From Candidatus Moraniibacteriota bacterium (GTDB taxonomy: Bacteria > Patescibacteriota > Minisyncoccia > Moranbacterales > GWC2-37-73), in contig DAOOTD010000002.1 in the NCBI GenBank assembly GCA_035390125.1, forward strand, positions 41,908 through 105,907: 64,000 bases of DNA. Direction: 5' to 3'. Below the pieces are notes generated by a model, which was not told where the DNA came from, did not search any database, and worked only from the letters and a program-made list of their open reading frames with translations. Made by a program: the position numbers and the translations under genes. The first letter of the stretch is position 1; every line of letters begins with the position of its first letter. Shown here in pieces: positions 41,229 through 58,249 of the stretch.

Positions 41229-41300
41229 GCGGGTATCGTATAGTGGCTATTATACGTCCTTGCCAAGGATGAGACGGCAGTTCGATTCTGCTTACCCGCT
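41229..41300 (+). tRNA. tRNA-Gly (anticodon GCC)
   Basis: Anticodon stem-loop cgtcc-ttGCCaa-ggatg. The 3' end overlaps the stop of the recombinase gene. Confidence 0.85.
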
Positions 41301-42899
41301 CAGAAGTTCAAAAACGGCCTTAGATTGGGCTGTTTTTGTTTTATCTAAGGCAAAATTAGTCAGTTCTAACCTTGGACATTCTGCCTTTATGGTTTCCAAT
41401 CCTTTTTCAATGAGTTGGTATTGTTTTCTTAGTGTGATATCTAGCACGCCATCCTTGAGGGTGAAATCTGATCCCAAAGCCCGTAAAATGTTGGTTTTCT
41501 CGGTATAATCACCAACATTAAAATTATGTTTTGCATATACCGCAAACTTGAATGTTTTTTCGGTCAGTTCTAACCATTCATCGGCTCGCTGGTTTATGTC
41601 ATCTAAAGATTGTTGAATCTTGTCTTTTTCTTTCAGTAGGGTCGCTTTTCTTTCCTTGAATTCGTCATCGCCAATTAAATCCTTGTTGGCATTTTCGGGT
41701 GAGATGTAGATATCTAACAACTTATCAATCCTATCTTGGCATTTCTTCAATGCTTTTTGTTGGTTTTCAATCATTATGTTCCTATTATCAACTTCGAGTT
41801 CGTTATCTCGCCTTAAGATTTTCAAAGCATAATCCAAAAAACTTTTAGGTATAGTGATTTTATCCAACTTATCTGCAATCTGCTTGTTGATGTCGTTGTA
41901 GGTAATGGATTTTTGTTTGCAATTAACATTCAACTTCTTTCTAGTGCAGTTATGATAGATGAATGTTCGGACAACATTTTCGGTTTTTATATGCTTCAGT
42001 TTTAGTTGGGTAGTAATATGACATCCGCACTCACCGCAACGGATAGTTCCTCGATAGGGAAGAATTTTATGTTTTGTTTGTGGCTTAGTTTTATTTCCCA
42101 AAAGTCCTTGAACATAATCAAATTCAGCTTCGGTTATCATCGGTGTGTGATTTCCTTCATAAACCTTACCAGTCCATTCATATTTTCCACAATAAAAAGG
42201 ATTGGTAAAAATATCGTATCCATGGCTAGCGTGCAGTTTTATTTCTTGCCCCTTGCACATTCTTCGCAAACCCCATTCATTGTTGGCAATCTCGATAATT
42301 TTTGAAACAGAATAGTCGCCAGTTAACATCAAGTCCCACATCTTACGAACAATGGGGAATTTTACTTCATCTACAAAAATCTGTTTTTTACCTTGGTCTG
42401 TTCCTTTGTCATTTTTATATCCTATCGGTGCACGACCAGGTCTCCAGCCTTGCTCTGCCTTATTCAACAGTCCTCGTCGGACATCTTTTCCTAAATCAAT
42501 AACATATTGGTTCGCCATTCCAAATTCAACACTCATCATTATCACATTGTCTACGGTTTTGTATTCTCTGCCGACTGTTTGGATGGACTGGATGAGTCCT
42601 TGTTGAAGCAACCACATTATCTCACCACCATCAACGGGATTTCTTGCTAGACGATTTAACTTCCAGCATATAATTCCATCTGCCTTGCCTTGTTTAATAG
42701 CAGACAGCATTTTGTTGAATTGTTCCCGACCTGGCTTTTTCGCTGATTTGCTCTCTTGAAAAACACCGACAATTTTAACATCGAGATGGCGTGCTAATTT
42801 TTCCAGTTCTTTTTTCTGGCTTTCAATAGATTGCGTTTGACGATCTTCCGCTTCGGTACTTTTGCGAAGATACATCAGATATTTTTGTTTTGTTTCCAT
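41292..42899 (-). CDS. large serine recombinase (phage-integrase type)
   Basis: N-terminal resolvase catalytic domain (YLRKSTEAEDRQTQSIESQ with the nucleophilic Ser), recombinase domain, zinc-ribbon CGECGCH...C and a C-terminal coiled-coil. The stop overlaps the tRNA-Gly 3' end. Confidence 0.85.
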   Translation of the reverse strand: METKQKYLMYLRKSTEAEDRQTQSIESQKKELEKLARHLDVKIVGVFQESKSAKKPGREQFNKMLSAIKQGKADGIICWKLNRLARNPVDGGEIMWLLQQGLIQSIQTVGREYKTVDNVIMMSVEFGMANQYVIDLGKDVRRGLLNKAEQGWRPGRAPIGYKNDKGTDQGKKQIFVDEVKFPIVRKMWDLMLTGDYSVSKIIEIANNEWGLRRMCKGQEIKLHASHGYDIFTNPFYCGKYEWTGKVYEGNHTPMITEAEFDYVQGLLGNKTKPQTKHKILPYRGTIRCGECGCHITTQLKLKHIKTENVVRTFIYHNCTRKKLNVNCKQKSITYNDINKQIADKLDKITIPKSFLDYALKILRRDNELEVDNRNIMIENQQKALKKCQDRIDKLLDIYISPENANKDLIGDDEFKERKATLLKEKDKIQQSLDDINQRADEWLELTEKTFKFAVYAKHNFNVGDYTEKTNILRALGSDFTLKDGVLDITLRKQYQLIEKGLETIKAECPRLELTNFALDKTKTAQSKAVFELLSG

Positions 42900-42932
42900 A
42901 TTAGTGTGTACAGAATTTATGCCACGGATTGA

Positions 42933-43263: not shown

Positions 43264-43266
43264 TTA

Positions 43267-43575: not shown

Positions 43576-43592
43576 AATTTTCGGTAATTTTG

Positions 43593-44844: not shown

Positions 44845-44924
44845 ATATTTATTATTGATATTTTCTCACTAGATAGGCTTAAAAGCAAGATAAATGTTTA
44901 CTTTTAGCCATTTTTATATTACAT

Positions 44925-45078
44925 TGTAAGTGGTACCATACTCATATAGACACTGAGAGTAATCTCAGTAATTTTGCTTCATCACGCCTTTAAGCGGGCG
45001 GCTCGGCGCACATGATGGGGCATTTCGGTGTCTTTTGAGTGTGGTACCCGTCGGGTCGTCCACTCAAGCGGAACTTCT
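44925..45078 (+). ncRNA. GC-rich structured element; candidate ncRNA or cis-acting site
   Basis: A 13-bp long-range helix (GGTACCATACTCA at 44928 pairs with TGAGTGTGGTACC at 45035) encloses local hairpins. GC is about 50 percent versus about 28 percent around it. Ends at a strong terminator. Confidence 0.3.
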
Positions 45079-45112
45079 CGACGACTTAATTATTAAGTCG
45101 TTTTTTGTTTTT
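45079..45112 (+). terminator. rho-independent terminator
   Basis: acgacttaattattaagtcgt followed by T6. Confidence 0.75.
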
Positions 45113-45138
45113 AAAAAACAAATTACACAATAAAAAAT

Positions 45139-45489
45139 ATGGGTGTAATTGAATCAATCGGAGCTAACCGAGCAAGAATCATTTTCGATGATTTTTGTGT
45201 TAGATTATTTTTAAAATATAAAGGAAACTATTGCTCTGATGTTAGAATATGGAAATTATCAAAATCCAATATACTTTTTGGCATGTTTAATAGTAAAAAT
45301 TTATACTGGGCTGTTTGTGATGAGGCGGCCAATTCTTTACACGGTTGGTTTTATAAAGAAGGCGATCTACTTAAGTCATTGGCGCATAGAATAGAGCAAT
45401 GCTCTAATGAGAATGAACTGAAAAGATTGTGTCTTAATCTGGAAAATATAATTGAAAAAGGAATTCCATTAGATATAGGAGAATTTTAA
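45139..45489 (+). CDS. hypothetical protein
   Basis: 116-aa ORF, Cys-containing, no motif recognised. Confidence 0.45.
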   Translation: MGVIESIGANRARIIFDDFCVRLFLKYKGNYCSDVRIWKLSKSNILFGMFNSKNLYWAVCDEAANSLHGWFYKEGDLLKSLAHRIEQCSNENELKRLCLNLENIIEKGIPLDIGEF

Positions 45490-45490
45490 T

Positions 45491-45700
45491 ATGGAAAATA
45501 AAAAACATCGTCTCCAATCAAATTTCGAATTTATTGCTGAAACATCCTTGCGAGTAGTGCGAGCGTTTTCATATTTCTTTATGGTTGCGATACCCCTTTT
45601 GAATTATAAAGATCTGCGATTTTCAATTAAAACTATCTTGATTTGCTTGAGTTTGGTTTTTATTTCTAATAGACTACTTGGCAAAATTAGAAGCAAATAA
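45491..45700 (+). CDS. hypothetical small membrane protein
   Basis: 69 aa with one or two hydrophobic helices. Start is 2 nt after the previous stop. Confidence 0.35.
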   Translation: MENKKHRLQSNFEFIAETSLRVVRAFSYFFMVAIPLLNYKDLRFSIKTILICLSLVFISNRLLGKIRSK

Positions 45701-46130
45701 GGTTTTATCTAAAACGAATAATCGTGTTTGGTCGCGGATTCTAGCTATGCAAGATATAACAAAAAACGACCCTCTCTTTTTTGCGAAGGTCTTTTTTTAT
45801 TCCTCTTTTGTCACCAAAACACTCTCTTTTGGCTTTAAATAGCCAAAGATATAAAGTTATATGGCTGACCAGCCAAGACATCCTCTAGGGATGAAATAAA
45901 GCCTCCAGGGGCAGTGAGAGTGTCTCGCCAAATGGGCTTTTTGGCTAAAATAAGGCAAAGATTTCTTAATTAAACGATAAAAGGTTTTAAATAGCGGAAA
46001 TTATCGTGTTTGGTCGATTAATTTGTGTAGTATGATAACTGTTTAAAGAATTAATTATTATATAAGTTTATGGGTTAAAAAGCTATATATTGGCATAAGG
46101 CAATTTAAGTGATAAGCTAAAAATACAAAT

Positions 46131-47045
46131 ATGGCATTATTTAGCATACAAGGCGAGAAAACTAAAAAGATTTTATCTAAAAGCTTAGATTTAGAAAAAA
46201 AACTTCAAAAATTATTCGAGAATAATCTTGAAGACGTTTTGAATATCACTTTTTTAGCCCATGAATATTCCACAAGTTTTGGCGGAAGAATTGATACATT
46301 GGGAATAGATAAAAACGGATCTCCCGCAATAATAGAATATAAAAAGAACCAAAATGATAATGTAATTAATCAAGGACTCTCCTATTTGCGATGGCTTTTA
46401 GATCATAAGGCTGATTTTGAAATATTATGCAGAAATAATAAAGTTGCAGTTGAAATTGATTGGGATTCGCCAAGGGTTATCTGTATAGCAGAAAACTATA
46501 ATAAATTTGATATTGACACTGCGGATATTTTGCCTATAAATATTGAATTGCTAAGATATAGGATCTATGAAAACGATATTTTATCTCTAGACATAGAAAA
46601 TTATCAAAAAGTAAGAATTTCAACTTCTGGCATATTAAAGAAAGCAAGAAATCAAAAAGAGAAGCAGAATGTTCTTCAGAAAAATTATTTATTAGAAGAT
46701 CATCTGAAAAATGCGCAAAAGGAAATAAAATTACTTTTTTATAAGTTGCGAGAAAAGATCACAGCACTTGATGAAAATATTATTGAAGAGGCTAAGGCAA
46801 AGTATATCGCCTATAAAACTTCAACTAATTTTGTTGATATTGTGGTGCTTGGCAATAGTTTAAAAATATTTTTAAATGTGAAAAGTGGAAAACTTATTGA
46901 TAAAAATTCAATAGCCAGAGACTTAACTAAGCCAAAATCCGTTGGTCATTGGGGGAATGGTGATTATGAGGTAAAATTGCAAAGCGAAAATGATTTAGAA
47001 AAAGTTTTTGACCTAATAAAACAAAGTTATGGTTATAATAAATAA
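46131..47045 (+). CDS. PD-(D/E)xK nuclease-fold protein (NucS/DUF91-like core) with C-terminal extension
   Basis: GRIDTLGIDKNGSPAIIEYKKN...NVINQGLSYLRWL carries the D...D...ExK...Q..Y signature. Overlaps the downstream gene by 17 nt. Confidence 0.6.
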   Translation: MALFSIQGEKTKKILSKSLDLEKKLQKLFENNLEDVLNITFLAHEYSTSFGGRIDTLGIDKNGSPAIIEYKKNQNDNVINQGLSYLRWLLDHKADFEILCRNNKVAVEIDWDSPRVICIAENYNKFDIDTADILPINIELLRYRIYENDILSLDIENYQKVRISTSGILKKARNQKEKQNVLQKNYLLEDHLKNAQKEIKLLFYKLREKITALDENIIEEAKAKYIAYKTSTNFVDIVVLGNSLKIFLNVKSGKLIDKNSIARDLTKPKSVGHWGNGDYEVKLQSENDLEKVFDLIKQSYGYNK

Positions 47046-48348
47046 AACTATGTACCAAGTAAAAATACCTAAGATATTATTTTTAGCACTAGGGACAGCA
47101 AGATTTTATTATAAAGGTTATTATAATACAAATGATCTCGCTGGAATTGCAAATAAATATGCCGAACATCTCGTTCGTTTAAGATCAGACAAAAAAGATT
47201 ATAAGTATTTGGATGATACTAATTTTGGTGGATTAAGAGGAAATTTTTCAACACTTCTTACGTGGAAAGGGTTTGTTAAAAGGGGAAATGCCATAGTAAG
47301 TAGATATTATATTGGCAGGGATAAAAGATTGGCTAATGCAGTATGTAATGGTGAAATTATACTAAATGAGAGTAATATGACTGCGTATACTACAAATGAA
47401 AAATTAAAAGAACTTTTAGAATTAGAAGCATGGCTTTTCACCGTAAAGGAAACACAGGCACATATAAAAGTTATGTTAGGAAAAGATAAGAGCATACCTC
47501 TTTCTAGAGATAACGATAATTTCAAAAAAGTATCTGTCGTAAGGAGTGCAAATGGTCAATATTTTATAAGATCGTTAGTTAACAATTTTATTGATTCAAA
47601 AAATAAAGTTCTGGAGTACAGTATAGTTAATTTTTGGGAAGGAAAAAAGTTAAAGAAGAAAAATCTTCATCCATTAATAGTTATTCCTACGAAAGATACT
47701 CCTTGGAGTAAAATATTTGCAATAAAAATGGAAGATTTGATTGATAATAAACCTTTGACATTATTGGTTGATTTAGAAAAAGAAATTTGTTTTGATACGG
47801 ACAATAATAAATACAAGCTATATTCTCTAAGGGAAGCCGTTGACGAATTTACAACTGGAGATGAAAATATACCTCAAAGGCTTTCATATTCCTGGGAAAA
47901 AATAAAAGAGGCTCACTGTGATAAAGAAGCTGATTTTTCTGAAATCAAAGAAGATGAATTTATAATTTTTCTAGAGAAATTCCTCAAGTGGCAAAAAGAA
48001 TTTGAAGTTGGAGAAAAGAAAGTTGTGGGTGTAAATGTATCGAGCTCTGGTGGTCCCGATGTTCACTTAACATTTTCGGGTGGCACAGCCCAAAAATTAG
48101 AACTTGAACATAACTGGAAAAGCTACTTAGATCACAGGCATCACGAAAGTAATGCATGGGTAGATACATGGCTTTTTGCAGAAGAAGAATGGAATCCTAA
48201 AAGAATATTAAGTTTATACAAGACACATAGAAAAACCAATGGTCAAAGAATTCCTAATGTATTTTTATGTTTAGAAAGAGGAGAACGCAAGTGCTATGAA
48301 GCAAATTGGGATGAAGAAACATTTACAGAAATACCTTTAAAATTTTAG
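47029..48348 (+). CDS. hypothetical 439-aa protein, candidate second endonuclease subunit / specificity partner
   Basis: No family recognised. Possible D...ExK-like patch (PTKD...LLVDLEKE). Start overlaps the PD-(D/E)xK gene and the 3' end overlaps the convergent methyltransferase by 12 nt. Confidence 0.45.
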   Translation: MVIINKTMYQVKIPKILFLALGTARFYYKGYYNTNDLAGIANKYAEHLVRLRSDKKDYKYLDDTNFGGLRGNFSTLLTWKGFVKRGNAIVSRYYIGRDKRLANAVCNGEIILNESNMTAYTTNEKLKELLELEAWLFTVKETQAHIKVMLGKDKSIPLSRDNDNFKKVSVVRSANGQYFIRSLVNNFIDSKNKVLEYSIVNFWEGKKLKKKNLHPLIVIPTKDTPWSKIFAIKMEDLIDNKPLTLLVDLEKEICFDTDNNKYKLYSLREAVDEFTTGDENIPQRLSYSWEKIKEAHCDKEADFSEIKEDEFIIFLEKFLKWQKEFEVGEKKVVGVNVSSSGGPDVHLTFSGGTAQKLELEHNWKSYLDHRHHESNAWVDTWLFAEEEWNPKRILSLYKTHRKTNGQRIPNVFLCLERGERKCYEANWDEETFTEIPLKF

Positions 48349-49128
48349 TTTACTTAATTGATTTTTATTTTTTAACACAACTATTTTCGAGGTTGTGTTA
48401 TTTTTTTTCGCTCGATTTTTCATTATTTCAAAATATTCATTGTCATTCTCTATACTTATACTGTTCCTTTTTAATTGATCCGCTGAAGATTGAAGCGTTC
48501 CACTGCCGGCAAAACAATCTAAAACCCAGTCATTTTCATTAGTAAATATTTTTAGTAAGTGCTCTAAAACCTTGGCTGGTTTTTGAGTGGGATGTTTCGT
48601 TCTTTCATTGCCCATGCATATCGGAGTTTCTACAAAATCAGCCTTGATGTGATTATGCATTTCATTTTGCTTTGTAAAATTGAAAGTATAATCTATTTTT
48701 TTTTCATTAAATCCTTTCGTTGCCCATAAAATTGCCTCACATGAAGATAAAAAACCTGTTTTTCTAATTTGGGGGGCTGGATTAGTTTTGTGCCAAATAA
48801 TAGTAGCATGGTGTTTAAAATCATGCTTTTCATATATTCTTTTTATATCACTAATATATTCTAATTTGCTAAAAATTAACAAATTTCCAGATTCTTTAAC
48901 TTTATTTTTTGTATTCTTTATCCATTTATCAGTAAATAATAGATATTCATCATCAGAAAAATAATCCCACTTTCCAAAATCTGATGATCTAGCCTTTCTT
49001 CCTTTTAATATCTTGGTATTTTTATTAGCAGTATTGTAAGGAGGATCAACAATTACGGCATCGAATTTTTTATTGATTTTTGGCAAAATATCCAAAGCAT
49101 CTCCGAATATTAAATAATGTGAATTCAT
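48337..49128 (-). CDS. DNA methyltransferase, beta-class amino-MTase (N6A or N4C)
   Basis: Motif IV DPPY (AVIVDPPYNT) precedes motif I FxGxG (LDCFAGSGTL). Confidence 0.85.
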   Translation of the reverse strand: MNSHYLIFGDALDILPKINKKFDAVIVDPPYNTANKNTKILKGRKARSSDFGKWDYFSDDEYLLFTDKWIKNTKNKVKESGNLLIFSKLEYISDIKRIYEKHDFKHHATIIWHKTNPAPQIRKTGFLSSCEAILWATKGFNEKKIDYTFNFTKQNEMHNHIKADFVETPICMGNERTKHPTQKPAKVLEHLLKIFTNENDWVLDCFAGSGTLQSSADQLKRNSISIENDNEYFEIMKNRAKKNNTTSKIVVLKNKNQLSKLKF

Positions 49129-49133
49129 AAAGT

Positions 49134-49898
49134 TTATTTTTTTAGTCGTTTAAGTGAATCAATATAATAACCCTTGTCAACTTCAGAACCTATAAAATTT
49201 CTTTTTAATCTTTTCGCCACAACCGCAGTAGTCCCTGAACCCATAAAAGGATCGAATATAATATCATTTTCATTTGAAGTTGCTAGTATTATTTTCTCTA
49301 AAAGCCATTCTGGTTTTTGTGTAGGATGTATTTTTTTTCCTCCCGCAGTTTTTCCTCTTGTCAAAACAGCTTCTCCATACCACATGCACCTCATTTGCTT
49401 TCCGTGATTAATCTTTTTCATCTCACCATAATTAAATGTATTTTTTTTAGTTTTTCTTGCCCATATGAAATTTTCATGATCAGCTACAAATCTCGTACAA
49501 GACAAATTTGGTGTAGCATCAGATTTGTGCCATATTATTTCATTTAAAGGCTCAAGCCCTATTTTTTTTAATAAGTATCCTGTTAAATAAATATTATGAT
49601 AAGTTCCTGCAACCCATATTGCTCCTTCATTTTTTAATATTCTATAACATTCTTGTAGCCATTTCTTTGTAAATTCTTCGAATTCAATATCTCCAAAATT
49701 ATCCCAATGCCCTTTATTTGTGCTTAAATCAGAACCGCCAGATTTTATGAATTTTATCTTAAAATTGCTTTTGCTTAGGTTATAGGGAGGATCTGCAAAT
49801 ATCAAGTCAATAGAGTTGCTTTTAATTTTTTTCATTAATTTTAAGCAATCTTCATTGTAGATTTTATTTATTTTCAGTTTTTTATCTGTAAAAATCAT
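49134..49898 (-). CDS. DNA methyltransferase, beta-class amino-MTase (N6A or N4C), second copy
   Basis: IFADPPYNL then FDPFMGSGTTAVVA. Lies 5 nt upstream of the other MTase. Confidence 0.85.
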   Translation of the reverse strand: MIFTDKKLKINKIYNEDCLKLMKKIKSNSIDLIFADPPYNLSKSNFKIKFIKSGGSDLSTNKGHWDNFGDIEFEEFTKKWLQECYRILKNEGAIWVAGTYHNIYLTGYLLKKIGLEPLNEIIWHKSDATPNLSCTRFVADHENFIWARKTKKNTFNYGEMKKINHGKQMRCMWYGEAVLTRGKTAGGKKIHPTQKPEWLLEKIILATSNENDIIFDPFMGSGTTAVVAKRLKRNFIGSEVDKGYYIDSLKRLKK

Positions 49899-50198
49899 CC
49901 TTATTTTTTAATTTATAGATTATAGGTTAATTATAACCTTAAAAGAGAGAAAAATACACCCCCAGGGCAATTTATTAAAAATATGCGAATTCTGTGTTTA
50001 AAATGTACCTAAATTGCTTTGACAAAGCACTTATTCCATGCTATAGTTTTTTCTAAAGACGAGGCATAGCTTTAAAGCTTTTAGGTATATCTCGATCGCT
50101 CTTATCTGAGTAGCGGCATTGGAACGGGCCGTGAAGAACGGTATAAGAAGAAAGTGGTCGAGCCTTCTTGTGTAATTAAGACATAATAAGAGAGCCAT

Positions 50199-50408
50199 AT
50201 GCCAAAGAAGCAAGATGCTTCTGGTATGCGAGGATATCGAACTCGAAACGAAGATGGAGAATTGCGCGATAAGCGTGATGATACCCACATTGGGACCATT
50301 GAGAAGCAGTACGATATAGATCTCGAAGTCAGAAGTGATATGCACTTAGGAACATATCTTAAGGAGCATAAAATAAAATCCCTTAACGACCTAATTAATG
50401 GTCAATAA
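50199..50408 (+). CDS. hypothetical small charged protein
   Basis: 69-aa ORF after a GC-rich leader. Flanked by a 14-bp inverted repeat (50059 / 50426). Confidence 0.3.
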   Translation: MPKKQDASGMRGYRTRNEDGELRDKRDDTHIGTIEKQYDIDLEVRSDMHLGTYLKEHKIKSLNDLINGQ

Positions 50409-50465
50409 GAGATTTTAGAACAAGAAGCTATTGCCTCGTCTTTATTTTACCATAAAATAGAGCAA

Positions 50466-51368
50466 TTGTTATCCACAACAAATATGTCTGATGGTGAAGA
50501 ACTTAAAATCTATATAGACGGATCTGCTATAACAAATCCAGGAAAATTAGTTGGATGTGCGGGAATAGTTTGCTATCCAGAATTCCTTAATATCCCAAAC
50601 AAAGAGCTCAGATGGTCCTACTCATTGGGGTCAATTGGCAGCATGGAACTTCTGGCTTTGATAAATGCTTTAAAGTGGATTAACAAAAATGTAGCACATC
50701 TTCTTGAAAATTCTATAAGTTCAATATTAATCCTAAGTGATTCTGACTACATTGTTAGTTCGGCCAATTCATGGGTCTATAAATGGAGCAATCCATGGAA
50801 TAAAAATAAATGGAAAAAATCTGATGGTGGTACGGTTAAACACGAGAAATTATGGAAAGAATTTCTAAAAGAACGTAAAAAAACACGGATCAATTTCAAT
50901 ATTACAATTGAATGGATTGAAGGCAAGAGTACCCAAGAGACGAAAAGTGTCGATAAGGCAGCAAAAAGATCAGCAAGAAGTCTGGTGAAAAAGCCGAATT
51001 TTGAACAAATGCCTTATAAACAAGGGCGATCTTTACTGGGAAAAAAATCAAAATTAGAGTTATTTCTTGAAGTTGGAGAAACACACTTAATAAGAGTTTA
51101 CTCTCATTGTTTAGTCAGTAGAAAAAAAGATGCCGAATGTGAAGTTAGATTTGAGGTGATTAAAGACAAAAGCATCGAAGGAAGATTTAAAGCTTTCACA
51201 TCTCAGAAAATAGGTATTAGCAATATTGATAGGGGGCATTATTATTATGCGACTTTTGCTGACAATAAAATATTGCCGTGGATTGATAAAATAGAAGAAA
51301 TTGAAGAAAAAGAGGTTGAAATTATTAAGAAAAAGGCAAAGACCATAATAAAAGCGAAAACTAGTTAA
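50466..51368 (+). CDS. RNase H (type 1) domain protein with about 130-aa C-terminal extension
   Basis: DEDD-type pattern: IYIDGSA..., SMELLALINAL, ILSDSDYIV, KSVDKAAKRSA. Alternative start at 50484. Confidence 0.65.
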   Translation: MLSTTNMSDGEELKIYIDGSAITNPGKLVGCAGIVCYPEFLNIPNKELRWSYSLGSIGSMELLALINALKWINKNVAHLLENSISSILILSDSDYIVSSANSWVYKWSNPWNKNKWKKSDGGTVKHEKLWKEFLKERKKTRINFNITIEWIEGKSTQETKSVDKAAKRSARSLVKKPNFEQMPYKQGRSLLGKKSKLELFLEVGETHLIRVYSHCLVSRKKDAECEVRFEVIKDKSIEGRFKAFTSQKIGISNIDRGHYYYATFADNKILPWIDKIEEIEEKEVEIIKKKAKTIIKAKTS

Positions 51369-51439
51369 GATAAAGCACCTTGTAGGGTTGATTCAATTGT
51401 ATTAGGATATTAATATGTTTAGACAATATTTTTTACCAT

Positions 51440-51522
51440 AAATCCAGTTCTAACCGTATTAACTAGCCCGCTCAGGTATAAATTTACGGCTTTGTTAAGC
51501 CGTATTTTTGTTGTGGTATAAT
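51440..51522 (+). promoter_or_regulatory. cassette module A: 19-nt boundary motif + palindromic operator ACGGCTTTGTTAAGCCGT + extended -10 TGGTATAAT
   Basis: Operator 51486-51503, TATAAT 51517-51522. Same module recurs at 52209, 53200, 55932 and 57671. Confidence 0.7.
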
Positions 51523-51547
51523 AGAAATATAAAATTAAAATAAAAAA

Positions 51548-52171
51548 ATGCTAAACATTGATTCTGCAAATAAATTAAATCCAAAAGCTATATATTTATT
51601 TGCACTTAGATCATTTATCGCTTGGAGCTTACTAATGCTTGTTGTCGTCGGTCTTACAATATTTGTTATAAACATTTTTAATCAGAAAGAAATTATCTTA
51701 TCATCTAGCACAAAAGTTGGAGTTGGAATTCTAAATGAATACGACTATAGCAAAGCATTTCTTTTATTAATTTGGTTATTGCCAACAATAATTTTGTCTA
51801 TCCTTAGTTCGCTAATTTGGGGATTTCTAGTCTGGAAAAATTATACTTTTGAAATAACCGAAAATTCGATAAATATCAACTATGGAATTATAAAAAAAAC
51901 AAAAGATGTGATTTTTTATTTGGATATTGAAAAAATTGAATCTGAAAAACTAATAGCAGAAACATTAACAGGATTGGTAGCTCTAACTTTCTATTGTTCT
52001 GAAAATAAAACAAGCTCATTTCATAAAATAGTAAGAAATAGAATTATGCAAGCAACTTATTCAAGTGATTTTGTTGATGGCAGATCAATTCCAGGACTTT
52101 CGCCTGAAGAAGCATTAAAATTGAAAGAGACAATCTTGTCGTTCATAGGAAACAAGATAAATAAGAATTAA
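51548..52171 (+). CDS. membrane protein with bacterial PH-like (YdbS/YdbT-type) topology
   Basis: Two N-terminal TM helices then a roughly 120-aa soluble domain. Similar in architecture to bPH_2/DUF304 proteins. Confidence 0.4.
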   Translation: MLNIDSANKLNPKAIYLFALRSFIAWSLLMLVVVGLTIFVINIFNQKEIILSSSTKVGVGILNEYDYSKAFLLLIWLLPTIILSILSSLIWGFLVWKNYTFEITENSININYGIIKKTKDVIFYLDIEKIESEKLIAETLTGLVALTFYCSENKTSSFHKIVRNRIMQATYSSDFVDGRSIPGLSPEEALKLKETILSFIGNKINKN

Positions 52172-52208
52172 CAATGCATTTAAAATTTTAAATAAGGAAT
52201 TCTCCCCT

Positions 52209-52291
52209 AAACTCATTTCGAACATCATCTGCTAATGGGCTCACCTATGAATTTACGGCTTTTTTAAGCCGTATTTTTGTTGTGGTATAAT
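52209..52291 (+). promoter_or_regulatory. cassette module B (operator ACGGCTTTTTTAAGCCGT + TGGTATAAT)
   Basis: Operator 52254-52272, TATAAT 52286-52291. ATG lies 6 nt after the -10, so leaderless geometry. Confidence 0.7.
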
Positions 52292-52297
52292 GAAAAC

Positions 52298-53182
52298 ATG
52301 AATTCTATGAATCCAGAATGGCAAAAGCAAAAGATAGAAAAACAAGAAGCCAAAATTAACATTGGAGATGTTTATTTTAGTGAAGGCTTAAAATCTGTTT
52401 TTGAGAAAGAGGAGTTTGAGAATGAAATACTAAAAATAAATAAGGAAATCGAAAAATACTTGGGAGAGAATAAAAATTCAGCCGTTTACGATTTTAGGAT
52501 ATATGACAACAGAAAAGAATATGAAGAATATTTCAGAACCAATTATCCAGAAAAATCTGATTATATGGAAAATGACATGGTTTTTTATTCTCCAGATGAA
52601 AAACATAATAAAAATGTTATAGCTAAGTTTATGGAGCAAGCGACCTTAGATCCAAATGATTTAAAGATTCGAAAATATCTCGAAAAAGAAAAAATCAAAT
52701 TCGATGAGTTAGAGGCTTTGTCTAAGCAGAATTATAAAAATAATATTTATCCAACAATAGCACATGAATTAACTCATTCTCACCCATTTTTTAAAGGAAT
52801 GGATAATAAATCATCTAGAAGTAAATGGGAACAAGAAATGGTGTGTGTGTTTATTGACCAAAAAATGTGGGAGGAATATGTTCCATCCTATGGCAAAATG
52901 ATAAGAACAAAAGCAAAAGATCAATCTTTAGGTAGAGATTTGTTTGATGAAATCATTAAAGATTTTGAAGAAGGTGATTTTCAGGTTGAAGACTGGGAAA
53001 GGCTTTTTTACAACTTTTTGGAAAACAGACATGGCAAAGAAAAATTAAAAGATTTTTGGAATATTTTGGCCGAACTAAAAGACAAAGCTAATTTTGAACG
53101 ATGCTATGAAAAAATTTTTAGAGAAAATTTGAAAGATGCTATGATTATATTTCAAGAAAGAATAACAACAGATAAAATTTAA
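52298..53182 (+). CDS. HExxH-motif protein (putative zinc metallopeptidase)
   Basis: IAHELTHSHPFF. The track ORF start at 52277 is an artefact that reads through the promoter (TTG TTG TGG TAT AAT). Confidence 0.5.
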   Translation: MNSMNPEWQKQKIEKQEAKINIGDVYFSEGLKSVFEKEEFENEILKINKEIEKYLGENKNSAVYDFRIYDNRKEYEEYFRTNYPEKSDYMENDMVFYSPDEKHNKNVIAKFMEQATLDPNDLKIRKYLEKEKIKFDELEALSKQNYKNNIYPTIAHELTHSHPFFKGMDNKSSRSKWEQEMVCVFIDQKMWEEYVPSYGKMIRTKAKDQSLGRDLFDEIIKDFEEGDFQVEDWERLFYNFLENRHGKEKLKDFWNILAELKDKANFERCYEKIFRENLKDAMIIFQERITTDKI

Positions 53183-53199
53183 ATAAAGCTCTTATTCAC

Positions 53200-53310
53200 A
53201 AACCCAGTTCGAACGTCATCTACTAAGGGGCTCAGTTTTCTAAATTATGGCTTGCTAAAGCCATTTTTTGGTATTAGACATTGACATAATTATTAAAAAT
53301 ATACTATCAT
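53200..53310 (+). promoter_or_regulatory. cassette module C (boundary motif + variant palindrome ATGGCTTGCTAAAGCCAT + TTGACA promoter)
   Basis: Boundary motif 53200-53218, palindrome 53247-53264, consensus -35 TTGACA at 53281. Confidence 0.55.
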
Positions 53311-53388
53311 CAAATATTAGTTTTAGTTCGTTAATATAGATTAATAAATAATTTTACAAAAACAAAAAATATCGAAAGGAGAGAGGAA

Positions 53389-53961
53389 ATGAAATTTAAA
53401 ATACTCTGTATTCACGATACCAAAGGTATCAATTCTAATGAAACAGTAGCAGACTACCACCCGTTAACACTAGTGGATGTCTCAATGCTGATTCACGTGG
53501 CGTATGCCTTTAGAAAAAATGACCAAAAAGTTGCTGACATTCAAGCGCGACTCATTCAGGGGGTTATAGGTATGACCTGTCCATTTCCTGAAAAAGGTGA
53601 AATTAACGAAAGGGCAATAATAATTAAACGATTGTTTATGGAGGCAATGAGAAATAATAAACCCCCAGTTTATTCACAGTTAGCTCTACAACTTTTCGAA
53701 AACATGATGTTTGAAACAGACGCTGATATATTTACGCCAAAGTCTTCAGAAGATGACATGCTTACAAAAAGCATTGAGGAACTCGAATTACCTATTCGTG
53801 CATACAGATTTCTCAAAAGCATCAACATTAATACAATTGGAGAGTTAGTTCAAAAGACAGAAACAGAAATACTTAAGGAAAGAAATGCAGGCCAAAAGAT
53901 ACTTAGCCAAATAAAAGATGCTCTCATTGAGCATGATCTGTATTTCGCCGTAAGAACATAA
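53389..53961 (+). CDS. protein with C-terminal RNA polymerase alpha-subunit CTD-like (helix-hairpin-helix) domain
   Basis: SIEELELPIRAYRFLKSININTIGELVQKTETEILKERNAGQKILSQIKDALIEHDL aligns position-by-position with the bacterial RpoA alpha-CTD (IEELELSVRSANCLK...GELVQRTE.ELLK.PNLGKKSL.EIKD.L). The roughly 120-aa N-terminal domain is unknown. Confidence 0.6.
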   Translation: MKFKILCIHDTKGINSNETVADYHPLTLVDVSMLIHVAYAFRKNDQKVADIQARLIQGVIGMTCPFPEKGEINERAIIIKRLFMEAMRNNKPPVYSQLALQLFENMMFETDADIFTPKSSEDDMLTKSIEELELPIRAYRFLKSININTIGELVQKTETEILKERNAGQKILSQIKDALIEHDLYFAVRT

Positions 53962-54045
53962 AAAAATCCAATTTGATATTAAAAAAAGCCGAAAACCTGG
54001 ATTCAAGTCGTAGGCTTTTTTATTTTAAATAAAACATTTTTTCAT

Positions 54046-54064
54046 AAACCCAGTTCAAACGTCA
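54046..54064 (+). repeat. boundary motif AAACCCAGTTCAAACGTCA (copy D, without operator module)
   Basis: Identical 19-mer directly after the stop of the alpha-CTD-like gene. Downstream promoter differs (TTGACA at 54098 and 54118). Confidence 0.8.
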
Positions 54065-54217
54065 TATACTTAAGTAATTATTTAATAACACTTTAAATTG
54101 ACATTTAGGCTGTGATCTTGACAAATTAGCGCAGAAAGAGGACAATAGAAAACTAATTAGAGGAAAGTTTTTAGTAATTTTAAAACAAGTTCGAAATTCG
54201 AACAGAGAGGTGCAATA

Positions 54218-54613
54218 ATGAAAGAAAAGGTGAAAAATGCATGGTTTTTTGGAAAAGACAGCCCGGAAAAGAACGTTTTGCTTTTGTATTGTATCCTGCT
54301 GCAATTCCATACAAGCGGGTACAAAGACAGAGAGGCTCCCCTGAGAATTCTTAGCAAAAAGGAGCGGAACTTTGTTAATGAGAAAAAAAAGGAGGTCAGA
54401 GAAGATGGTGAAGGAAGAATACCATTCAGATTTTTTCAACTGATAGTGAAAAAAGGAGATGCATTATTGCAAGATGAATGTGTAATGATCCACTTTTGTC
54501 GCTACAAAAACAACTCTTCAATGATTGAGGAACTGAAAAAAGTGGGGAGCAAAAACAACTTCCTGCTGATTAAAAAGAAAAAAAACCTGTTCATATTGAA
54601 ATTCGAAGAATAA
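54218..54613 (+). CDS. hypothetical protein
   Basis: GAGAGG RBS 7 nt upstream of ATG. 131 aa. The overlapping minus-strand ORF 54062-54439 is rejected. Confidence 0.45.
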   Translation: MKEKVKNAWFFGKDSPEKNVLLLYCILLQFHTSGYKDREAPLRILSKKERNFVNEKKKEVREDGEGRIPFRFFQLIVKKGDALLQDECVMIHFCRYKNNSSMIEELKKVGSKNNFLLIKKKKNLFILKFEE

Positions 54614-54626
54614 AGGTTGAAAAAGT

Positions 54627-54678
54627 AGAGCCTCATGAGATAAACACTTTCTCATGAGGCTCTTGTTCTTTGTGTTTT
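54627..54678 (+). terminator. rho-independent terminator (12-bp perfect stem)
   Basis: gagcctcatgag-ataaacacttt-ctcatgaggctc followed by a T-rich run. Confidence 0.7.
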
Positions 54679-54726
54679 ACAATGGTAACATTAGGTAGTA
54701 TTGTAAAAATTAATGACTTAAATCTT

Positions 54727-55812
54727 ATGCCAAGACAAGAAAAATTCGAAACATTTGTGGGCAAAACCTACAAGGAAGGTAGTTTGGAAAAAAGAAAAGA
54801 AATAAGAACTGACTATGAAAATATAGAAGATCAAATAAATTCTTATTATGAAAAGAAAATCACCGCAAAAAATTTAGTTGATAACTTGGGGCTAGTTATT
54901 CTTGGTTCACAAGGTGAGCATGCCAGCACTCAAATTTATGCCTATGAAAATTTGATAAAAACAATTGCTGAAACAGAAAAAGAAGAAGACATAGACATAA
55001 TAGCTGAAGAAATTTTTTATAGCGCAGCAACTGAAAATAATCCAATGAAAAAAGCTTATTTGTTGGGGATATTAAATAATTTTTCTAATCTGGAAAGACT
55101 GGAAGAATTGTTTGGTAAAAAAGATGAAACAAACAATTCAGCAGATGTAAAAATTACAGAAGAAATAAATATAATTCAAAAAATCAGAAAAGCTGCACTA
55201 AGAATAAAAAAAGAAGGGAAAGTTTCCGAACAAGAGGAAGAAGTGTTAAATTATGTCCTAGATAATTTTCCAAGAGATAATAACGAGTGCGAATCCGCTC
55301 GGTTGGTGTCAGCTTATTATAGCAAGGAAAATTATGCGACAAGAATGCCTGCGCTAGGAAAACAAAAATTGCTCGAAGATGAAGTGTGGAAATGTTTAGA
55401 AGGAAACGGAATTCCTCGCTATGTGTATGCTCTTCCGGCGGGATGGCATCCTTCTGGCGAAAAATTAGATGAGGCTGATAGGTTTGGTATTAATTTGACT
55501 CAACAAGCGGCTATTTTCGAAGGAAAAGAAAAAATATTTATTGAATACGACATGAATCCACGATTATCGCGGCTTTATAATAGAAGAATAAAATATTATA
55601 GAGATCAAAAAAATCTCAAGAAAGTTGAAGAACTAGAAAATGCTTTAAAATTGAGGGTGTGGAGAGAAATTGAAAAAGATCCTGAAGCTATGGAAACATT
55701 CCAAAATATTGATAATATAGTTATTATCAAAAAAACAATTCGAGATTACGCAGACGATGTTGATATTAATAATTTAATGGAAAAAGACTTCCGTGATGAT
55801 GCAGTTCGATAA
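54727..55812 (+). CDS. hypothetical protein
   Basis: About 360 aa, Glu/Lys-rich, no motif recognised. Start taken at MPRQEKF just after the terminator. Confidence 0.45.
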   Translation: MPRQEKFETFVGKTYKEGSLEKRKEIRTDYENIEDQINSYYEKKITAKNLVDNLGLVILGSQGEHASTQIYAYENLIKTIAETEKEEDIDIIAEEIFYSAATENNPMKKAYLLGILNNFSNLERLEELFGKKDETNNSADVKITEEINIIQKIRKAALRIKKEGKVSEQEEEVLNYVLDNFPRDNNECESARLVSAYYSKENYATRMPALGKQKLLEDEVWKCLEGNGIPRYVYALPAGWHPSGEKLDEADRFGINLTQQAAIFEGKEKIFIEYDMNPRLSRLYNRRIKYYRDQKNLKKVEELENALKLRVWREIEKDPEAMETFQNIDNIVIIKKTIRDYADDVDINNLMEKDFRDDAVR

Positions 55813-55931
55813 TTAGCTTAATGTTTTAAATCTAAATTCTATTTTTAAATAAAAAACTTCCATTTTGGGAGTTTTTTATTAATATTTATTTATATTTAGA
55901 GCTTCTGAATAAAAGCAGATAGGGCACATTT

Positions 55932-55969
55932 ACTGCTTTGTTAAGCCGTATTTTTTGTTGTGGTATAAT
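55932..55969 (+). promoter_or_regulatory. cassette module E (operator ACTGCTTTGTTAAGCCGT + TGGTATAAT)
   Basis: One-mismatch palindrome 55932-55949, TATAAT 55964-55969. Confidence 0.65.
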
Positions 55970-55993
55970 GAAAAATGTAAATTGATAAATAAT

Positions 55994-56512
55994 ATGGAAA
56001 TCAAAAATAAGCTTCTATTTAAAACTGAAGTAAAAAAGAAAATAGATAGATTTATCAAAGAATTCCCTATATATTTTTTTATAAACATCGTTATTAACAT
56101 TTCTCTCATAGTAATGATATTGGGAAGTGCCTTTTTTGTAGCTTTTAGCCTTGAAATGCTCGGCACCGGAATACATGCATATATAATCTTATTTATTGCT
56201 TTTTTATCTCTCGTTTTCAGAATAACCATAAAAGGCTTTTTTCGAAATATTAAAATTCTGAAAAGCATTCAAGCGGGCGACTATGAATTTGGAATTGAAA
56301 ATCATGAGCTGGATAATGCGATAGAATTTATTGAAGACATGCCGATAAAAAAAGACGAAGTTGAAAAAATGAGAGTAGCTCTTTCTTTTAATAAATTGAT
56401 TGATGTACTTGAGTACGCGCGTATTATAAAATGTAGCAAAGGCTTATATGATGTTGATTTGGTTTTTAAATATAGAGTAGAAAAAGTTATAGAAGATTGT
56501 ATTAAAATGTAA
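55994..56512 (+). CDS. hypothetical membrane protein
   Basis: Three N-terminal TM helices and a cytoplasmic C-domain. The track start 55955 reads through the promoter (the same MLWYNE artefact). Confidence 0.5.
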   Translation: MEIKNKLLFKTEVKKKIDRFIKEFPIYFFINIVINISLIVMILGSAFFVAFSLEMLGTGIHAYIILFIAFLSLVFRITIKGFFRNIKILKSIQAGDYEFGIENHELDNAIEFIEDMPIKKDEVEKMRVALSFNKLIDVLEYARIIKCSKGLYDVDLVFKYRVEKVIEDCIKM

Positions 56513-56534
56513 ATTTGTAAACTAATAGAAAAAC

Positions 56535-56855
56535 ATGATTCCAATAGAATTTCTCAGGCAGTTTCGCGTTGGTGAATATGCAATCTTCGATCTAGCAGTA
56601 TCTTTTCTAGGAATTTATTTATTATCCTCTTTGCTGTCAAAAATGTTTCTTAAAATAAGAATCAATGTTCCTAAACATAACTGGTTGTTTCTAACTTTGC
56701 CAATTGGCATTGTTGCTCATCTGATTTTCGGACATATGACACCCATGACTAAAAATTTCCTGGATATTCATGGTCATTATGTTCTAAAAAGCTTAATTGT
56801 AGGTCTGTTGATTCTTGGTTTGAGGAATATAAAAATAATTAAGAAAAATAAATAA
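56535..56855 (+). CDS. hypothetical small membrane protein
   Basis: 106 aa with three hydrophobic helices. Confidence 0.4.
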   Translation: MIPIEFLRQFRVGEYAIFDLAVSFLGIYLLSSLLSKMFLKIRINVPKHNWLFLTLPIGIVAHLIFGHMTPMTKNFLDIHGHYVLKSLIVGLLILGLRNIKIIKKNK

Positions 56856-56878
56856 TCTTTTTCCGATAGAATATTTTC

Positions 56879-57649
56879 ATGGAAAAAATAATTATCAAAA
56901 ACAGGAAAGATCAAAACGTTGTAGTTTTGTTAGAAAGAGCTGCAAATCAAAAAGGATTGGCATTTGTTATGCATGGACTAGGGGGTTTTAAGGAGCAAGA
57001 ACATATTGAAACATTTGCCGATGCTTTCAAGAAAAAGAACTATACCGTAATTAGATTTGATACAACAAATACAATAGGTGAAAGCGATGGAAACATGGTT
57101 GACGCAACACTTACTAATTATTATGAAGACTTAGAAGATGTGATTGATTGGGCGAGTAAACAAAATCTTTATCAACAACCATTTGTTTTGTGTGGTCATA
57201 GTCTTGGTGCAATATCCTCGGCTTTATATGCTGAAAAATATCCAGAAAAAATAAAAGCTCTCGCTCCTATTTCCACGGTGATTTCCGGAAAGCTAACAGA
57301 AGAAACGCCAAATTTCATGGAAATTGGAAAAGAATGGGAAGAAAAAGGCATAAGAGAATGGGAAAGCAAAAGTCAGCCAGGTTTAGTTAAAAAATTAAAA
57401 TGGTCGCATGTTGAAGACAGAAGGAAATACGATTTGCTTCCAGCGGTTAAAAAATTAAAAATGCCTGTACTTTTAATTGTTGGTGATTTAGACGATACCA
57501 CTCCACTTAATCAACAAGAATTGCTATATAATAGTTTACCCGGGAAGAGAGAGCTCCATATTATAAGGGGCGCAGAACATACTTTTAGAGAAAAAGAGCA
57601 TCTCGATGAAATATATAAAATATTTTTGAGGTGGATTGAAAGTCTATAG
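56879..57649 (+). CDS. alpha/beta-hydrolase fold protein (esterase/lipase-like)
   Basis: Nucleophile elbow GHSLG. Downstream Asp/His in the usual order (VGDLDD..., GAEHTF). Confidence 0.7.
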   Translation: MEKIIIKNRKDQNVVVLLERAANQKGLAFVMHGLGGFKEQEHIETFADAFKKKNYTVIRFDTTNTIGESDGNMVDATLTNYYEDLEDVIDWASKQNLYQQPFVLCGHSLGAISSALYAEKYPEKIKALAPISTVISGKLTEETPNFMEIGKEWEEKGIREWESKSQPGLVKKLKWSHVEDRRKYDLLPAVKKLKMPVLLIVGDLDDTTPLNQQELLYNSLPGKRELHIIRGAEHTFREKEHLDEIYKIFLRWIESL

Positions 57650-57670
57650 TCTAAATGAAGCATTTTCTCT

Positions 57671-57754
57671 AAACCCAGTTCAAACGTCAGATAATAATGG
57701 GCTCAGGTATGAATCTACAGCTTTGTTAAGCTGTATTTTTTGTTGTGATATAAT
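57671..57754 (+). promoter_or_regulatory. cassette module F (boundary motif + operator ACAGCTTTGTTAAGCTGT + TGATATAAT)
   Basis: Motif 57671-57689, perfect palindrome 57717-57734, TATAAT 57749-57754. ATG 6 nt downstream (leaderless geometry). Confidence 0.7.
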
Positions 57755-57760
57755 TTAATT

Positions 57761-58249
57761 ATGAAGAAAAAAACGAAAGAAGCTTTTGATTGGATAATTA
57801 AAATATTCAGAGATAATAATATACCCTTTCAATTATCCGGAGGCCTTGCTGCTAAAATTTATGGTTCGCCAAAAGATTTGTGGGATATTGATTTTGATAT
57901 TCCAGATAGCTGTTTTTCCAAGGTGAGAAATTTAGTTTCCAAATATGTTATATTTGGTCCTAAAAAAACAACCGCCGAAGGTTTTGATTGTATGCTTTTA
58001 AGGCTGAATTATCATGGGCAGCAAATTGATGTGAGCGGAAATTGTATAAAAATTTTTGATAAGGTTAAAAAGAAATGGGTCAAAGATAATACTGACTTTG
58101 AAAGATCAGCCAAAAAAAGAGTGTTCGATAGAATTGTTCCGGTGATATGTCCGGAAGATCTGCTAAAGTATAAAAGCAAACTCTCAAGAAAGGCGGATTC
58201 AATAGACATAAAGGCTTTAAAAAAATATCTATTACAAAAAAATAAATAA
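57761..58249 (+). CDS. minimal nucleotidyltransferase-fold (Pol-beta superfamily) protein
   Basis: hG[GS]-x9-DhD pattern: LSGGLAAKIYGSPKDLWDIDFDI. Confidence 0.5.
   Translation: MKKKTKEAFDWIIKIFRDNNIPFQLSGGLAAKIYGSPKDLWDIDFDIPDSCFSKVRNLVSKYVIFGPKKTTAEGFDCMLLRLNYHGQQIDVSGNCIKIFDKVKKKWVKDNTDFERSAKKRVFDRIVPVICPEDLLKYKSKLSRKADSIDIKALKKYLLQKNK

Follow-up and report, generated by a model that had tools for sequence, protein, structure and literature searches.

Large serine integrases such as phiC31, Bxb1 and the Listeria A118/LI integrase combine a resolvase domain, a recombinase domain and a zinc ribbon, lie at the edge of their elements and use attP and attB sites with a short core. In the known sites of these large serine recombinases (LSRs) the motif of the zinc-ribbon domain is closer to the centre in attB than in attP, by 5 bp (PMC3783163). 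Attachment sites inside the recombinase gene have been described for the archaeal "suicidal" integrases of the SSV1, pTN3 and pT26-2 type, tyrosine recombinases that are split into inactive halves. According to a 2021 review, these enzymes are known only from Archaea and the att-in-gene arrangement is exclusive to them (PMC8371274). Tycheposons carry an integrase, replication genes and cargo at a tRNA gene, where older elements are pushed inward and leave degenerate remnants and att repeats; LSRs are a small minority among the elements of that study (10.1101/2020.12.28.424599). Here we describe a locus in a 64,000-nucleotide stretch of a Candidatus Moraniibacteriota genome (contig DAOOTD010000002.1, positions 41,908 to 105,907; the whole stretch is referred to as the window). 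A 19-base motif, AAACCCAGTTCAAACGTCA, recurs there between small genes, beside an LSR element that abuts a tRNA-Gly gene. With a probability of roughly 0.85, the 19-mer forms the outer, conserved part of the attP P arm in an LSR family that targets tRNA-Gly 3' ends in bacteria of the candidate phyla radiation (CPR), and its copies are junctions of successive insertions.

A related element was found in circular form. The 8,612-bp contig L069 contains no tRNA and has a terminal overlap of 101 nt, which indicates a circular assembly. Its LSR (P0002; 88% identity, 550 aa) ends in ..KAVFESMSSLVNTVRTGFMGKSFV, and its attP is uninterrupted (..CCATAAATCCAGTTCTAACCGTATTAACTAAACTGCTCATAGATTCAAAAACGGCCTTAGATTGGGCTGTTTTTGTTTTATC.., with a contiguous CCATAAATCCAGTTCTAACCGTATTAACTAAACTGCTCATAGATTCAAAAACGGCC..). 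This attP corresponds to window positions 51436-51473, the left half of the first junction (J1), joined to the sequence from 41302 onward, the right side of attL. The P arm of J1 is identical to that of L069 at 19 of 19 positions, both having the same variant of the 19-mer, and it is nearly identical to attR of the related element L056. All window copies align gap-free with the P arms of L056, L062, L064, L065, L066 and L067. A reading of the sequence alone had suggested a recombination or insertion site, and this suggestion is borne out by the identity of copy 1 with an attP arm and by the alignment of the other copies.

GCTC is the sole block common to attL and attR in seven of seven pairs. 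Consequently, the crossover must lie within GCTC. From GTTC to the end of GCTC the distance is 27 nt in every P arm but 22 nt in tRNA-Gly (GTTCGA..GCTC), which places GTTC(G/T)A 5 bp further out in the P arm. The shift of this putative left half-site matches the published attB/attP rule. Judged by its sequence, the window system thus has the attributes of LSR att sites, namely an adjacent recombinase with a catalytic serine, an attP composed of the left part of attR and the right part of attL, and the 5-bp shift. With the tRNA the repeats share only GCTC, up to CCCGCTCAG. As regards dyad symmetry of the half-sites, TCTAA is mirrored at about +/-20-24 in the attP of the window and of L056, and at these positions the right halves of the other elements show no conservation. 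The window, L056 and L062 have different sequences to the right of the tRNA; therefore the right half of attB seems loosely constrained, which would make repeated insertion at one tRNA possible. Separately, the core of the P-arm motif, CAGTTCTAACC, occurs again in direct orientation on the P' side of attP, within the LSR gene and about 65 nt from its 3' end, in the window attL (41365-41375), L056, L058, L060 and L062. A second binding site is one possible explanation, a coincidence of coding another.

In the window, two copies of the 19-mer are exact (54046 and 57671) and a third has one mismatch (53200), with 0.02 matches expected by chance; degenerate variants start at 51440 and 52209. A profile search with the whole arm over the 64 kb returned these five copies only, all on the plus strand, with E values from 1e-10 to 1.8e-6 (J2, 5.6e-8; J3, 1e-10; J4, 1.8e-6; J6, 5.7e-9). 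No inverted copy is present on either strand. The sequence-only reading had counted six copies, one at every cassette boundary. The motif is real, but there are five copies, three near-exact and two degenerate, and the junction at about 55.9 kb (J5, 55915-55969) has no 19-mer. The motif follows the upstream stop codon by 71, 37, 17, 84 and 21 nt, in order, so that the range of 10-30 nt given previously holds for two of the five copies. It had also been stated that a hairpin with a T-run is absent. This is correct for the 19-mer itself, but such a hairpin follows 27-28 nt past the motif in four of the five copies (51485, 52254, 53247 and 57716). The junction hairpins score as intrinsic terminators, and their stem pairing is kept by compensatory changes (TACGGC/GCCGTA, TACAGC/GCTGTA, ATGGC/GCCAT). 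Overall, the motif is the 5' portion of a repeat of about 125 nt with the order TTTAAATAA, N13, 19-mer, N10, GGGCTCAGG, hairpin, T-run and, about 25 nt before the next ATG, GTTGTGGTATAAT. Since all copies are confined to 51.4-57.7 kb of the window, the motif is not part of a generic genome-wide repeat.

The tRNA-Gly(GCC) gene (41229..41301, plus strand; detected by ARAGORN and Rfam) ends in GTTCGATTCTGCTTACCCGCTC, with GCTC at 41298-41301. This 3' end would be the left half-site (B arm) of attB, now part of attL. The LSR gene (41292..42899, minus strand, 535 aa; Pfam Resolvase PF00239, Recombinase PF07508 and Zn_ribbon_recom PF13408) is convergent with the tRNA gene and overlaps it by 10 nt, and its last two codons and stop (AGC GGG TAA) are read from the tRNA 3' end, as in an integrated, tail-less form. 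More than 2700 homologs exist, mainly in CPR bacteria, most of them exactly 535 aa long. Among 13 homologs the RKST motif with the catalytic S14, as well as S534 and G535, is invariant. Twelve LSR loci of relatives were fetched, and in all nine integrated ones that reach the tRNA junction the LSR adjoins tRNA-Gly in the same way. The anticodon is GCC in L056, L058/59, L060, L062, L063, L065 and L067 and TCC in L064 and L066. A scan of viral contigs found no relatives of the LSR.

At the far ends of the LSR elements of L056, L062, L064, L065, L066 and L067, arms are present on the strand of the tRNA. They read ccATAAATCCAGTTATAACCGTATTAACTAAACCGCTCA (L056), taATCTAGTTCTAACCGCATGTACCAGCCAGCTCA (L062), cGGTTCTAACCTCCTTTACTAAGGAGCTC (L064), ctctAAACCCAGTCCGAACTGCCTCCACTTCCCCGCTCA (L065) and ctctgAACCCAGTTCTAACCGTATCAACTAGCCAGCTCA (L066), compared with ccATAAATCCAGTTCTAACCGTATTAACTAGCCCGCTCA in J1 of the window; L067 has two arms 1.1 kb apart. 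The arms of L065 and L066 start with ctctAAACCCAGT and ctctgAACCCAGTT and resemble the canonical motif. Therefore J1 is attR of an integrated element of about 10.2 kb (41302-51469), which has CCCGCTCAG on both sides, at the tRNA and within copy 1. Besides the LSR, the element contains small open reading frames (ORFs), a candidate structured RNA, a DUF5655 protein, two N6/N4 DNA methylases and an RNase H-like protein (Pfam). Its GC content is 31.9%, compared with 30.8% in the adjacent array and 34-36% in the backbone. The order tRNA-Gly, LSR element, array is the same in L067. In L062 the genes that flank the window locus (L19 with a tRNA cluster; a 3D-domain gene, tRNA-Cys and tRNA-Leu) enclose the LSR element alone, with no cassette array. 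Hence, the region 51.5-60 kb of the window is variable DNA.

Two side observations concern these loci. A GC-rich intergenic segment within the LSR element (44925-45110, plus strand) folds with -73.4 kcal/mol (z = -7.05 versus shuffles) and ends in a terminator hairpin and T-run; this candidate structured RNA of the mobile element has no Rfam match. Small GIY-YIG genes (83-88 aa) adjoin tRNA-Gly genes in L024, L029, L056, L058/59 and L065, and the one in L024 sits between repeats of the tRNA 3' end (CCCGCTCA).

Part of the conservation of the motif is, judging from its codons, due to coding of the LSR tail on the other strand, where the LSR reading frame extends across attP. In reverse complement the 19-mer gives GAC GTT CGA ACT GGG TTT (D V R T G F), and it therefore also encodes the D/T-V-R-T-G-F of the C-terminal tail. 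In the circular-form LSR this tail comprises 15 residues (550 versus 535 aa), and about 15-17 codons are removed by integration. Since the tRNA then supplies GGG TAA, the integrated LSR ends in ..SG; some gene calls of homologs read on into the antisense strand of the tRNA instead. Reverse-strand translations (asterisks denote stops) are SSLVNTVRTGFMGKSFV for the circular attP of L069, SGLVNTVRTGFMVKNIV for J1, SGEVEAVRTGFREKGFV for L065, SWLVDTVRTGFREKYLI for L066, SPLVDDVRTGFVNKSFI for J3, which has the length of the P0002 tail, SPLADDVRNEFRGEFLI for J2, SRLCNDVRTGFREKGFV for L024 and SPLCNDVRTGFMQKCLQ for junction J(b) of L022. The translations of J4 (DV*TGFMKKCFI*) and J6 (SPLLSDV*TGFRENASFRL*, by a change of CGA to TGA) are interrupted. 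The conserved pattern is xLVxxVRTGFxxKxxx*, with the stop at the same place in eight arms, and the TTTAAATAA repeat upstream of the motif holds this stop. In GTTC[T/G]AAC the variable base corresponds to the first position of an Arg codon, where the change is synonymous (AGA or CGA; CGG in L065); this codon has become TGA in J4, J6 and the second junction of L009. Third codon positions are the most variable (entropy 0.82 versus about 0.5 within the 19-mer). In AGTTCNAAC there is hardly any variation at any of the three codon positions, so a constraint on the DNA site probably supplements the coding constraint.

The TGA change of the fossil Arg codon is the same in three arms (window 54046-54064 and 57671-57689; L009 7831-7850 in reverse-complement coordinates) and appears as GTTCAAAC or GTTCAAGC. 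It could reflect gene conversion, a TCGA mutational hotspot or selection on the DNA site. Two short called ORFs on unrelated contigs, P0121 and P0122, read ..KTAQSKAVFELLSYLVNTVRTGFMNKSFF.. and are LSR 3'-end fossils that span attP, like the window junctions.

A scan of 185,579 species genomes with an 18-mer gave 19 matches, 14 of which are chance matches in high-GC genomes; the other five lie in low-GC assemblies of the Moranbacteria/Parcubacteria type. Further copies came from a metagenome scan, and a 16-mer scan of viral contigs gave chance matches in high-GC phage genes only. Outside the window the consensus is cATAAACCCAGTTCGAACGTCATTGCACAAGGGGCTCA. A variable hairpin and T-run always come next, and an ordinary promoter follows most copies. 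A profile search detected second copies 0.6-1.3 kb away, with one gene between, in L009, L022/L013 and L026; therefore such arrays are not peculiar to the window. In five of five relatives with enough flank (L004, L009, L022, L024, L029), ARAGORN places a tRNA-Gly(TCC) gene upstream on the same strand, about 0.6-2.2 kb before the first arm. In L004 the end of this tRNA (..CCCGCTCA) is followed by a right half of the window type (GGcataaaaaTACGGC.., hairpin, TTGTGGTATAAT), a gene that is 78% identical to window 55994-56512, and the 19-mer.

Gene families and their order differ among the arrays of relatives. L009 has tRNA, a cassette of genes F8 and F9, a junction, a hydrolase, a second junction and SOD. 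L022 has tRNA, a first cassette (F2, 449 aa), a junction, the F8-F9 cassette, a second junction and SOD. The block that is 90% identical between the two loci stops exactly at GCTCA. In L022 the 5' module of the F8 cassette is preceded by a P arm; in L009 a direct repeat of the tRNA 3' end (CCCTACCCGCTCA) takes that place. The cassette boundary is therefore GCTC(A), and the arm and the tRNA 3' end are interchangeable on its left. Comparison of cassette presence and absence had been proposed as a check, with breakpoints expected inside the 19-mer. Between L009 and L022 the breakpoint indeed falls within the junction, but in GCTC, 11 nt 3' of the 19-mer. Between L004 and the window, the difference in content breaks at the 5' edge of the 19-mer and does not extend from junction to junction.

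As a further observation on these loci, the tRNA-Gly 3' end also occurs inverted, as GCGGGTAGGGGGAATCGAAC or in degenerate form, just upstream of promoters of the TGTGGTATAAT type. Such inverted copies are present in L022 (4665-4685), in the junction right halves of L026/L029 and in the sequence "X" after tRNA-Gly(TCC) in L009 and L022. In L022, a 75-nt sequence after the tRNA is repeated past the last junction.

In the proposed mechanism, attP of the free circle would consist of the P arm (..AAAYCCAGTTCNAACSKYA..N11), GCTC and P' (A-rich stretch, hairpin and T-run), and strand exchange would take place inside the GCTC that is common to the tRNA 3' end. Integration would yield attL, composed of the intact tRNA and P', with the LSR now ending in ..SG and taking its stop from the tRNA. 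At the far end of the element it would yield attR, composed of the P arm with the 19-mer, GCTC and the sequence that formerly followed the tRNA. Since the sequence to the right of the tRNA appears unconstrained, the tRNA would stay a target after insertion. Later arrivals may then insert beside the tRNA and displace earlier ones outward. The newest insertion in the window would be the intact 10.2-kb element, with copy 1 as its attR. Copies 2, 3, 4 and 6 would be P arms of older related insertions, reduced to units of one to three genes, each opening on the 5' side with a P'-like terminator and then a promoter, and closing on the 3' side with a P arm. Each P-GCTC-P' junction would represent a fossil of roughly the last 30 LSR codons, followed by promoter and cargo. 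We infer that the LSR is the enzyme, that the insertions occurred in this order and that small units may have moved independently.

Several points weigh against this proposal. The right halves contain no clear mirrored zinc-ribbon motif. Junctions of the type P-GCTC-P' within a chromosome imply insertion beside a P'-like right half and, to our knowledge, canonical LSRs do not insert next to P' by using attL. The 19-mer is identical in copies 4 and 6 (54046-54064 and 57671-57689), although both contain an in-frame stop and have different flanks, so that pure decay of a coding fossil is insufficient as an explanation. No full-length LSR that ends in the canonical tail (SPLCNDVRTGFMQK) came out of a targeted search, which gave just three short J1-type fossil ORFs; for copies 3, 4 and 6 the enzyme has therefore been assigned by homology. 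Finally, 17 contigs from the window's own species showed no cassette polymorphism.

The small units can be read in two ways, as decayed elements or as non-autonomous cassettes that are mobilised in trans. Mobility is favoured by a right half that is cut off at a uniform point, by the lone cassette inserted in L004 and by the changed cassette order among relatives; the stop codons, the truncated arm and the uniformity of the 17 same-species contigs speak for scars. If the junctions were live sites, cassettes with a complete attP (P-GCTC-P') would be captured, excised and reshuffled in trans by LSRs, with tRNA-Gly as an integron-like platform. Both attP halves are indeed kept adjacent at the junctions, and J1, J2, J5, J6 and L004 have the same P' cut-off and promoter position. 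Moreover, a single 0.67-kb unit lies between tRNA-Gly(TCC) and the P arm in L004, the F8-F9 cassette opens the array in L009 but takes second place in L022, and about 40 nt of the canonical arm are the same in genomes with protein identities of only 48-78%. However, neither a circular cassette nor an empty site was observed, the window's species is uniform, two arms contain stop codons and one is truncated, and deletion or homologous exchange between repeats would yield the same patterns. We also know of no recombination between attP-like sites by LSRs. On balance we regard live sites as possible but doubtful. A somewhat more speculative idea is an integron-like capture system of CPR bacteria, in which LSRs insert and reshuffle single-gene cassettes with promoter and attP in trans at tRNA-Gly. 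The tail swap would then give two LSR forms, possibly controlling directionality or stability, and the system would be a bacterial, serine-type counterpart of the suicidal integrases.

It is improbable that the repeats are a locally duplicated terminator-promoter module that was spread by unequal or homologous recombination without any site-specific recombinase. In favour of such a module, all copies lie within 6.3 kb, and J1, J2, J5 and J6 have similar right halves (69-90% identity to a family reference copy). The left half, however, matches the attP of a circular element and attR of six other LSR elements and encodes an LSR tail in frame, and anchoring at tRNA-Gly recurs in independent genomes.

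A role at the RNA level, as a stability or processing signal in a 3' untranslated region or as a small RNA that ends at the next terminator, is highly improbable. A terminator hairpin always follows the motif, and in J4, the first junction of L009, L018 and J(b) of L022 the motif comes after the upstream terminator and could thus belong to a separate short transcript. Against this, the arm shows no RNA structure beyond that of shuffled sequence (z +0.2 to +1.4), Rfam searches of the region, the whole window and eight related loci gave nothing apart from tRNAs, the variation follows the codon logic of the opposite strand, and the last arm of an array faces a convergent gene. The RNase-processing alternative of the sequence-only reading is accordingly unsupported. 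Equally remote is a role as an operator through which a transcription factor would control the downstream promoters: the motif does include the palindrome GTTCGAAC, about 85 nt upstream of TGGTATAAT in the window, but a terminator stands between motif and promoter, their distance varies among genomes, terminal copies have no downstream gene, and the palindrome is broken in the common window variant GTTCAAAC.

Other identities were rejected on inspection. An integron attC would have an inverted partner and R boxes, which are missing, and the arms are not the inverted repeats of a Xer/dif-like site. Spacing and hexamers do not fit a sigma-54 or sigma-70 promoter with the motif as spacer. A LexA box would be in the wrong position and has no lead in the literature, and a decayed tRNA 3' half is contradicted by a T-stem that is unable to pair and by an arm that is 5 nt too long.

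Compared with the known large serine integrases, the domain architecture, the short core, the position of the integrase gene at the element edge and the 5-bp displacement of the recognition motif are the same. In contrast, the target here is a tRNA-Gly 3' end, the 3' end of the integrase ORF includes attP, the right half-sites show little conservation, and attP-like junctions persist in chromosomal arrays. With the archaeal suicidal integrases the locus shares an att site inside the recombinase gene, a tRNA target and a 3' fossil at the far end. However, the bacterial serine recombinase loses only a tail of 15 residues and keeps all Pfam domains, so that there is no inactivating split. As in tycheposons, an island anchored at a tRNA has apparently grown by serial integration, with the intact element nearest the tRNA, and the elements join an integrase with cargo and replication genes, a primase in relatives. 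Here, however, the repeats are P arms with just 4-9 nt of tRNA instead of partial tRNAs, the recombinase is an LSR and not a tyrosine recombinase, and the remnants are regular units of one to three genes, each with its own terminator-promoter module. No tyrosine recombinase was found among the larger ORFs (at least 95 aa) scanned at 32.6-62.8 kb, nor among ten scanned flanking ORFs of relatives. The array resembles an integron in its small, unrelated cassettes of the same orientation, with copies of a recombination site between them and variable content in relatives. It differs in the lack of IntI and of a folded attC (R''/L''-L'/R' boxes), in the promoter-like sites of its own and in the use of a tRNA platform instead of attI. 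In the integration-dependent immunity of mycobacteriophages, reportedly described by Broussard et al. in Mol Cell in 2013, attP lies in a phage gene and integration alters the C-terminus of the protein. There, however, the gene encodes a repressor, the integrase is a tyrosine recombinase and the lost tail is a degradation tag, whereas here the tail belongs to the LSR. In the literature we found no description of LSR elements that target tRNA-Gly in CPR bacteria, nor of an LSR with attP inside its own gene.

A puzzling repeat thus probably finds its explanation as an integrase attachment-site arm and not as a new regulatory or processing signal. The LSR family, with its many homologs mostly from CPR bacteria, is unusual since it targets tRNA-Gly and carries attP within its own frame, an arrangement held to be exclusive to archaeal tyrosine recombinases in 2021. 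The proposed attP, attB, attL and attR are short and testable and could be of interest to users of serine integrases for genome engineering. In these tiny genomes, accessory genes appear to be stacked at one tRNA gene as self-expressing units, which makes the locus suitable for studying gene gain in an uncultured lineage.

The junctions, all on the plus strand, differ in detail. The left half of J1 (51433..51473), attR of the resident element, comprises the P arm ccATAAATCCAGTTCTAACCGTATTAACTAGCCC with the 19-mer variant at 51440-51458 and the core GCTC at 51470-51473. Its right half (51474..51522) contains an A-rich stretch, a terminator hairpin (51485-51504), a T-run and the extended -10 element TGGTATAAT (TATAAT 51517-51522) for the next gene, and it resembles the P' side of attL (CAAAAACGGCC hairpin, then TTTTTGTTTT). 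J2 (52202..52291) has a degenerate 19-mer (52209-52227), GCTC at 52239-52242, a hairpin at 52254-52273 and TATAAT at 52286-52291. In J3 (53178..53269) the 19-mer (53200-53218) is preceded by TTTAAATAA with the reverse-strand stop of the fossil tail ORF and followed by GCTC (53230-53233) and a hairpin (53247-53264) with T-run; the promoter after it, TTGACA-18-TATCAT (53281-53310), differs from those of the other junctions. J4 (54024..54069) is a truncated P arm that sits past the upstream gene's own terminator. Its 19-mer is at 54046-54064, the GCTC core and the right half are missing, and the profile matches model positions 2-31 only. J6 (57664..57754) has the 19-mer at 57671-57689, GCTC at 57701-57704, a hairpin at 57716-57735, a T-run and TGATATAAT (TATAAT 57749-57754).

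J5 has an arm remnant, gCAGATAGGGCACAT; only "gcagatagggcacat" stands there before the hairpin, T-run and TGGTATAAT ahead of the gene at 55994. Its hairpin-promoter segment and the next gene match L004 just 3' of tRNA-Gly(TCC) (blastn, L004 5501-6078 to window 55943-56522, 82.6%). J4 (54046-54069, 19-mer without core or right half) and J5 (core-side remnant with right half) complement each other. They look like a single junction that was split by a 1.85-kb insertion with the 131-aa and 376-aa genes.

The cassette genes between the junctions (51548..58249, plus strand) were identified from gene calls, Pfam and homologs in other arrays and are mutually unrelated. They encode, in order, a bPH_2 protein (51548-52171; Pfam), a 294-aa protein of no assigned family (52298-53182), an RpoA-CTD-only protein (53389-53961; Pfam), the 131-aa and 376-aa proteins of no assigned family between J4 and J5, a 172-aa membrane protein (55994-56512), a 106-aa protein, an alpha/beta hydrolase (56879-57649) and a 162-aa nucleotidyltransferase-like protein (57761-58249). 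In the RpoA-CTD cassette protein (190 aa), the C-terminal domain of the RNA polymerase alpha subunit alone is recognisable (E = 6e-17), an unusual stand-alone cargo.

Two further features lie elsewhere in the window. At 32836-33960, the perfect 18-bp palindrome TTGTTCCACGTGGAACAA or a close variant occurs in five to six irregularly spaced copies within 1.2 kb, which appear to lie inside an ORF with a Wzy_C domain (32652-34265, minus strand). A direct repeat of 300 nt with 91% identity (8857-9156 and 9312-9611) extends across two adjacent minus-strand ORFs.

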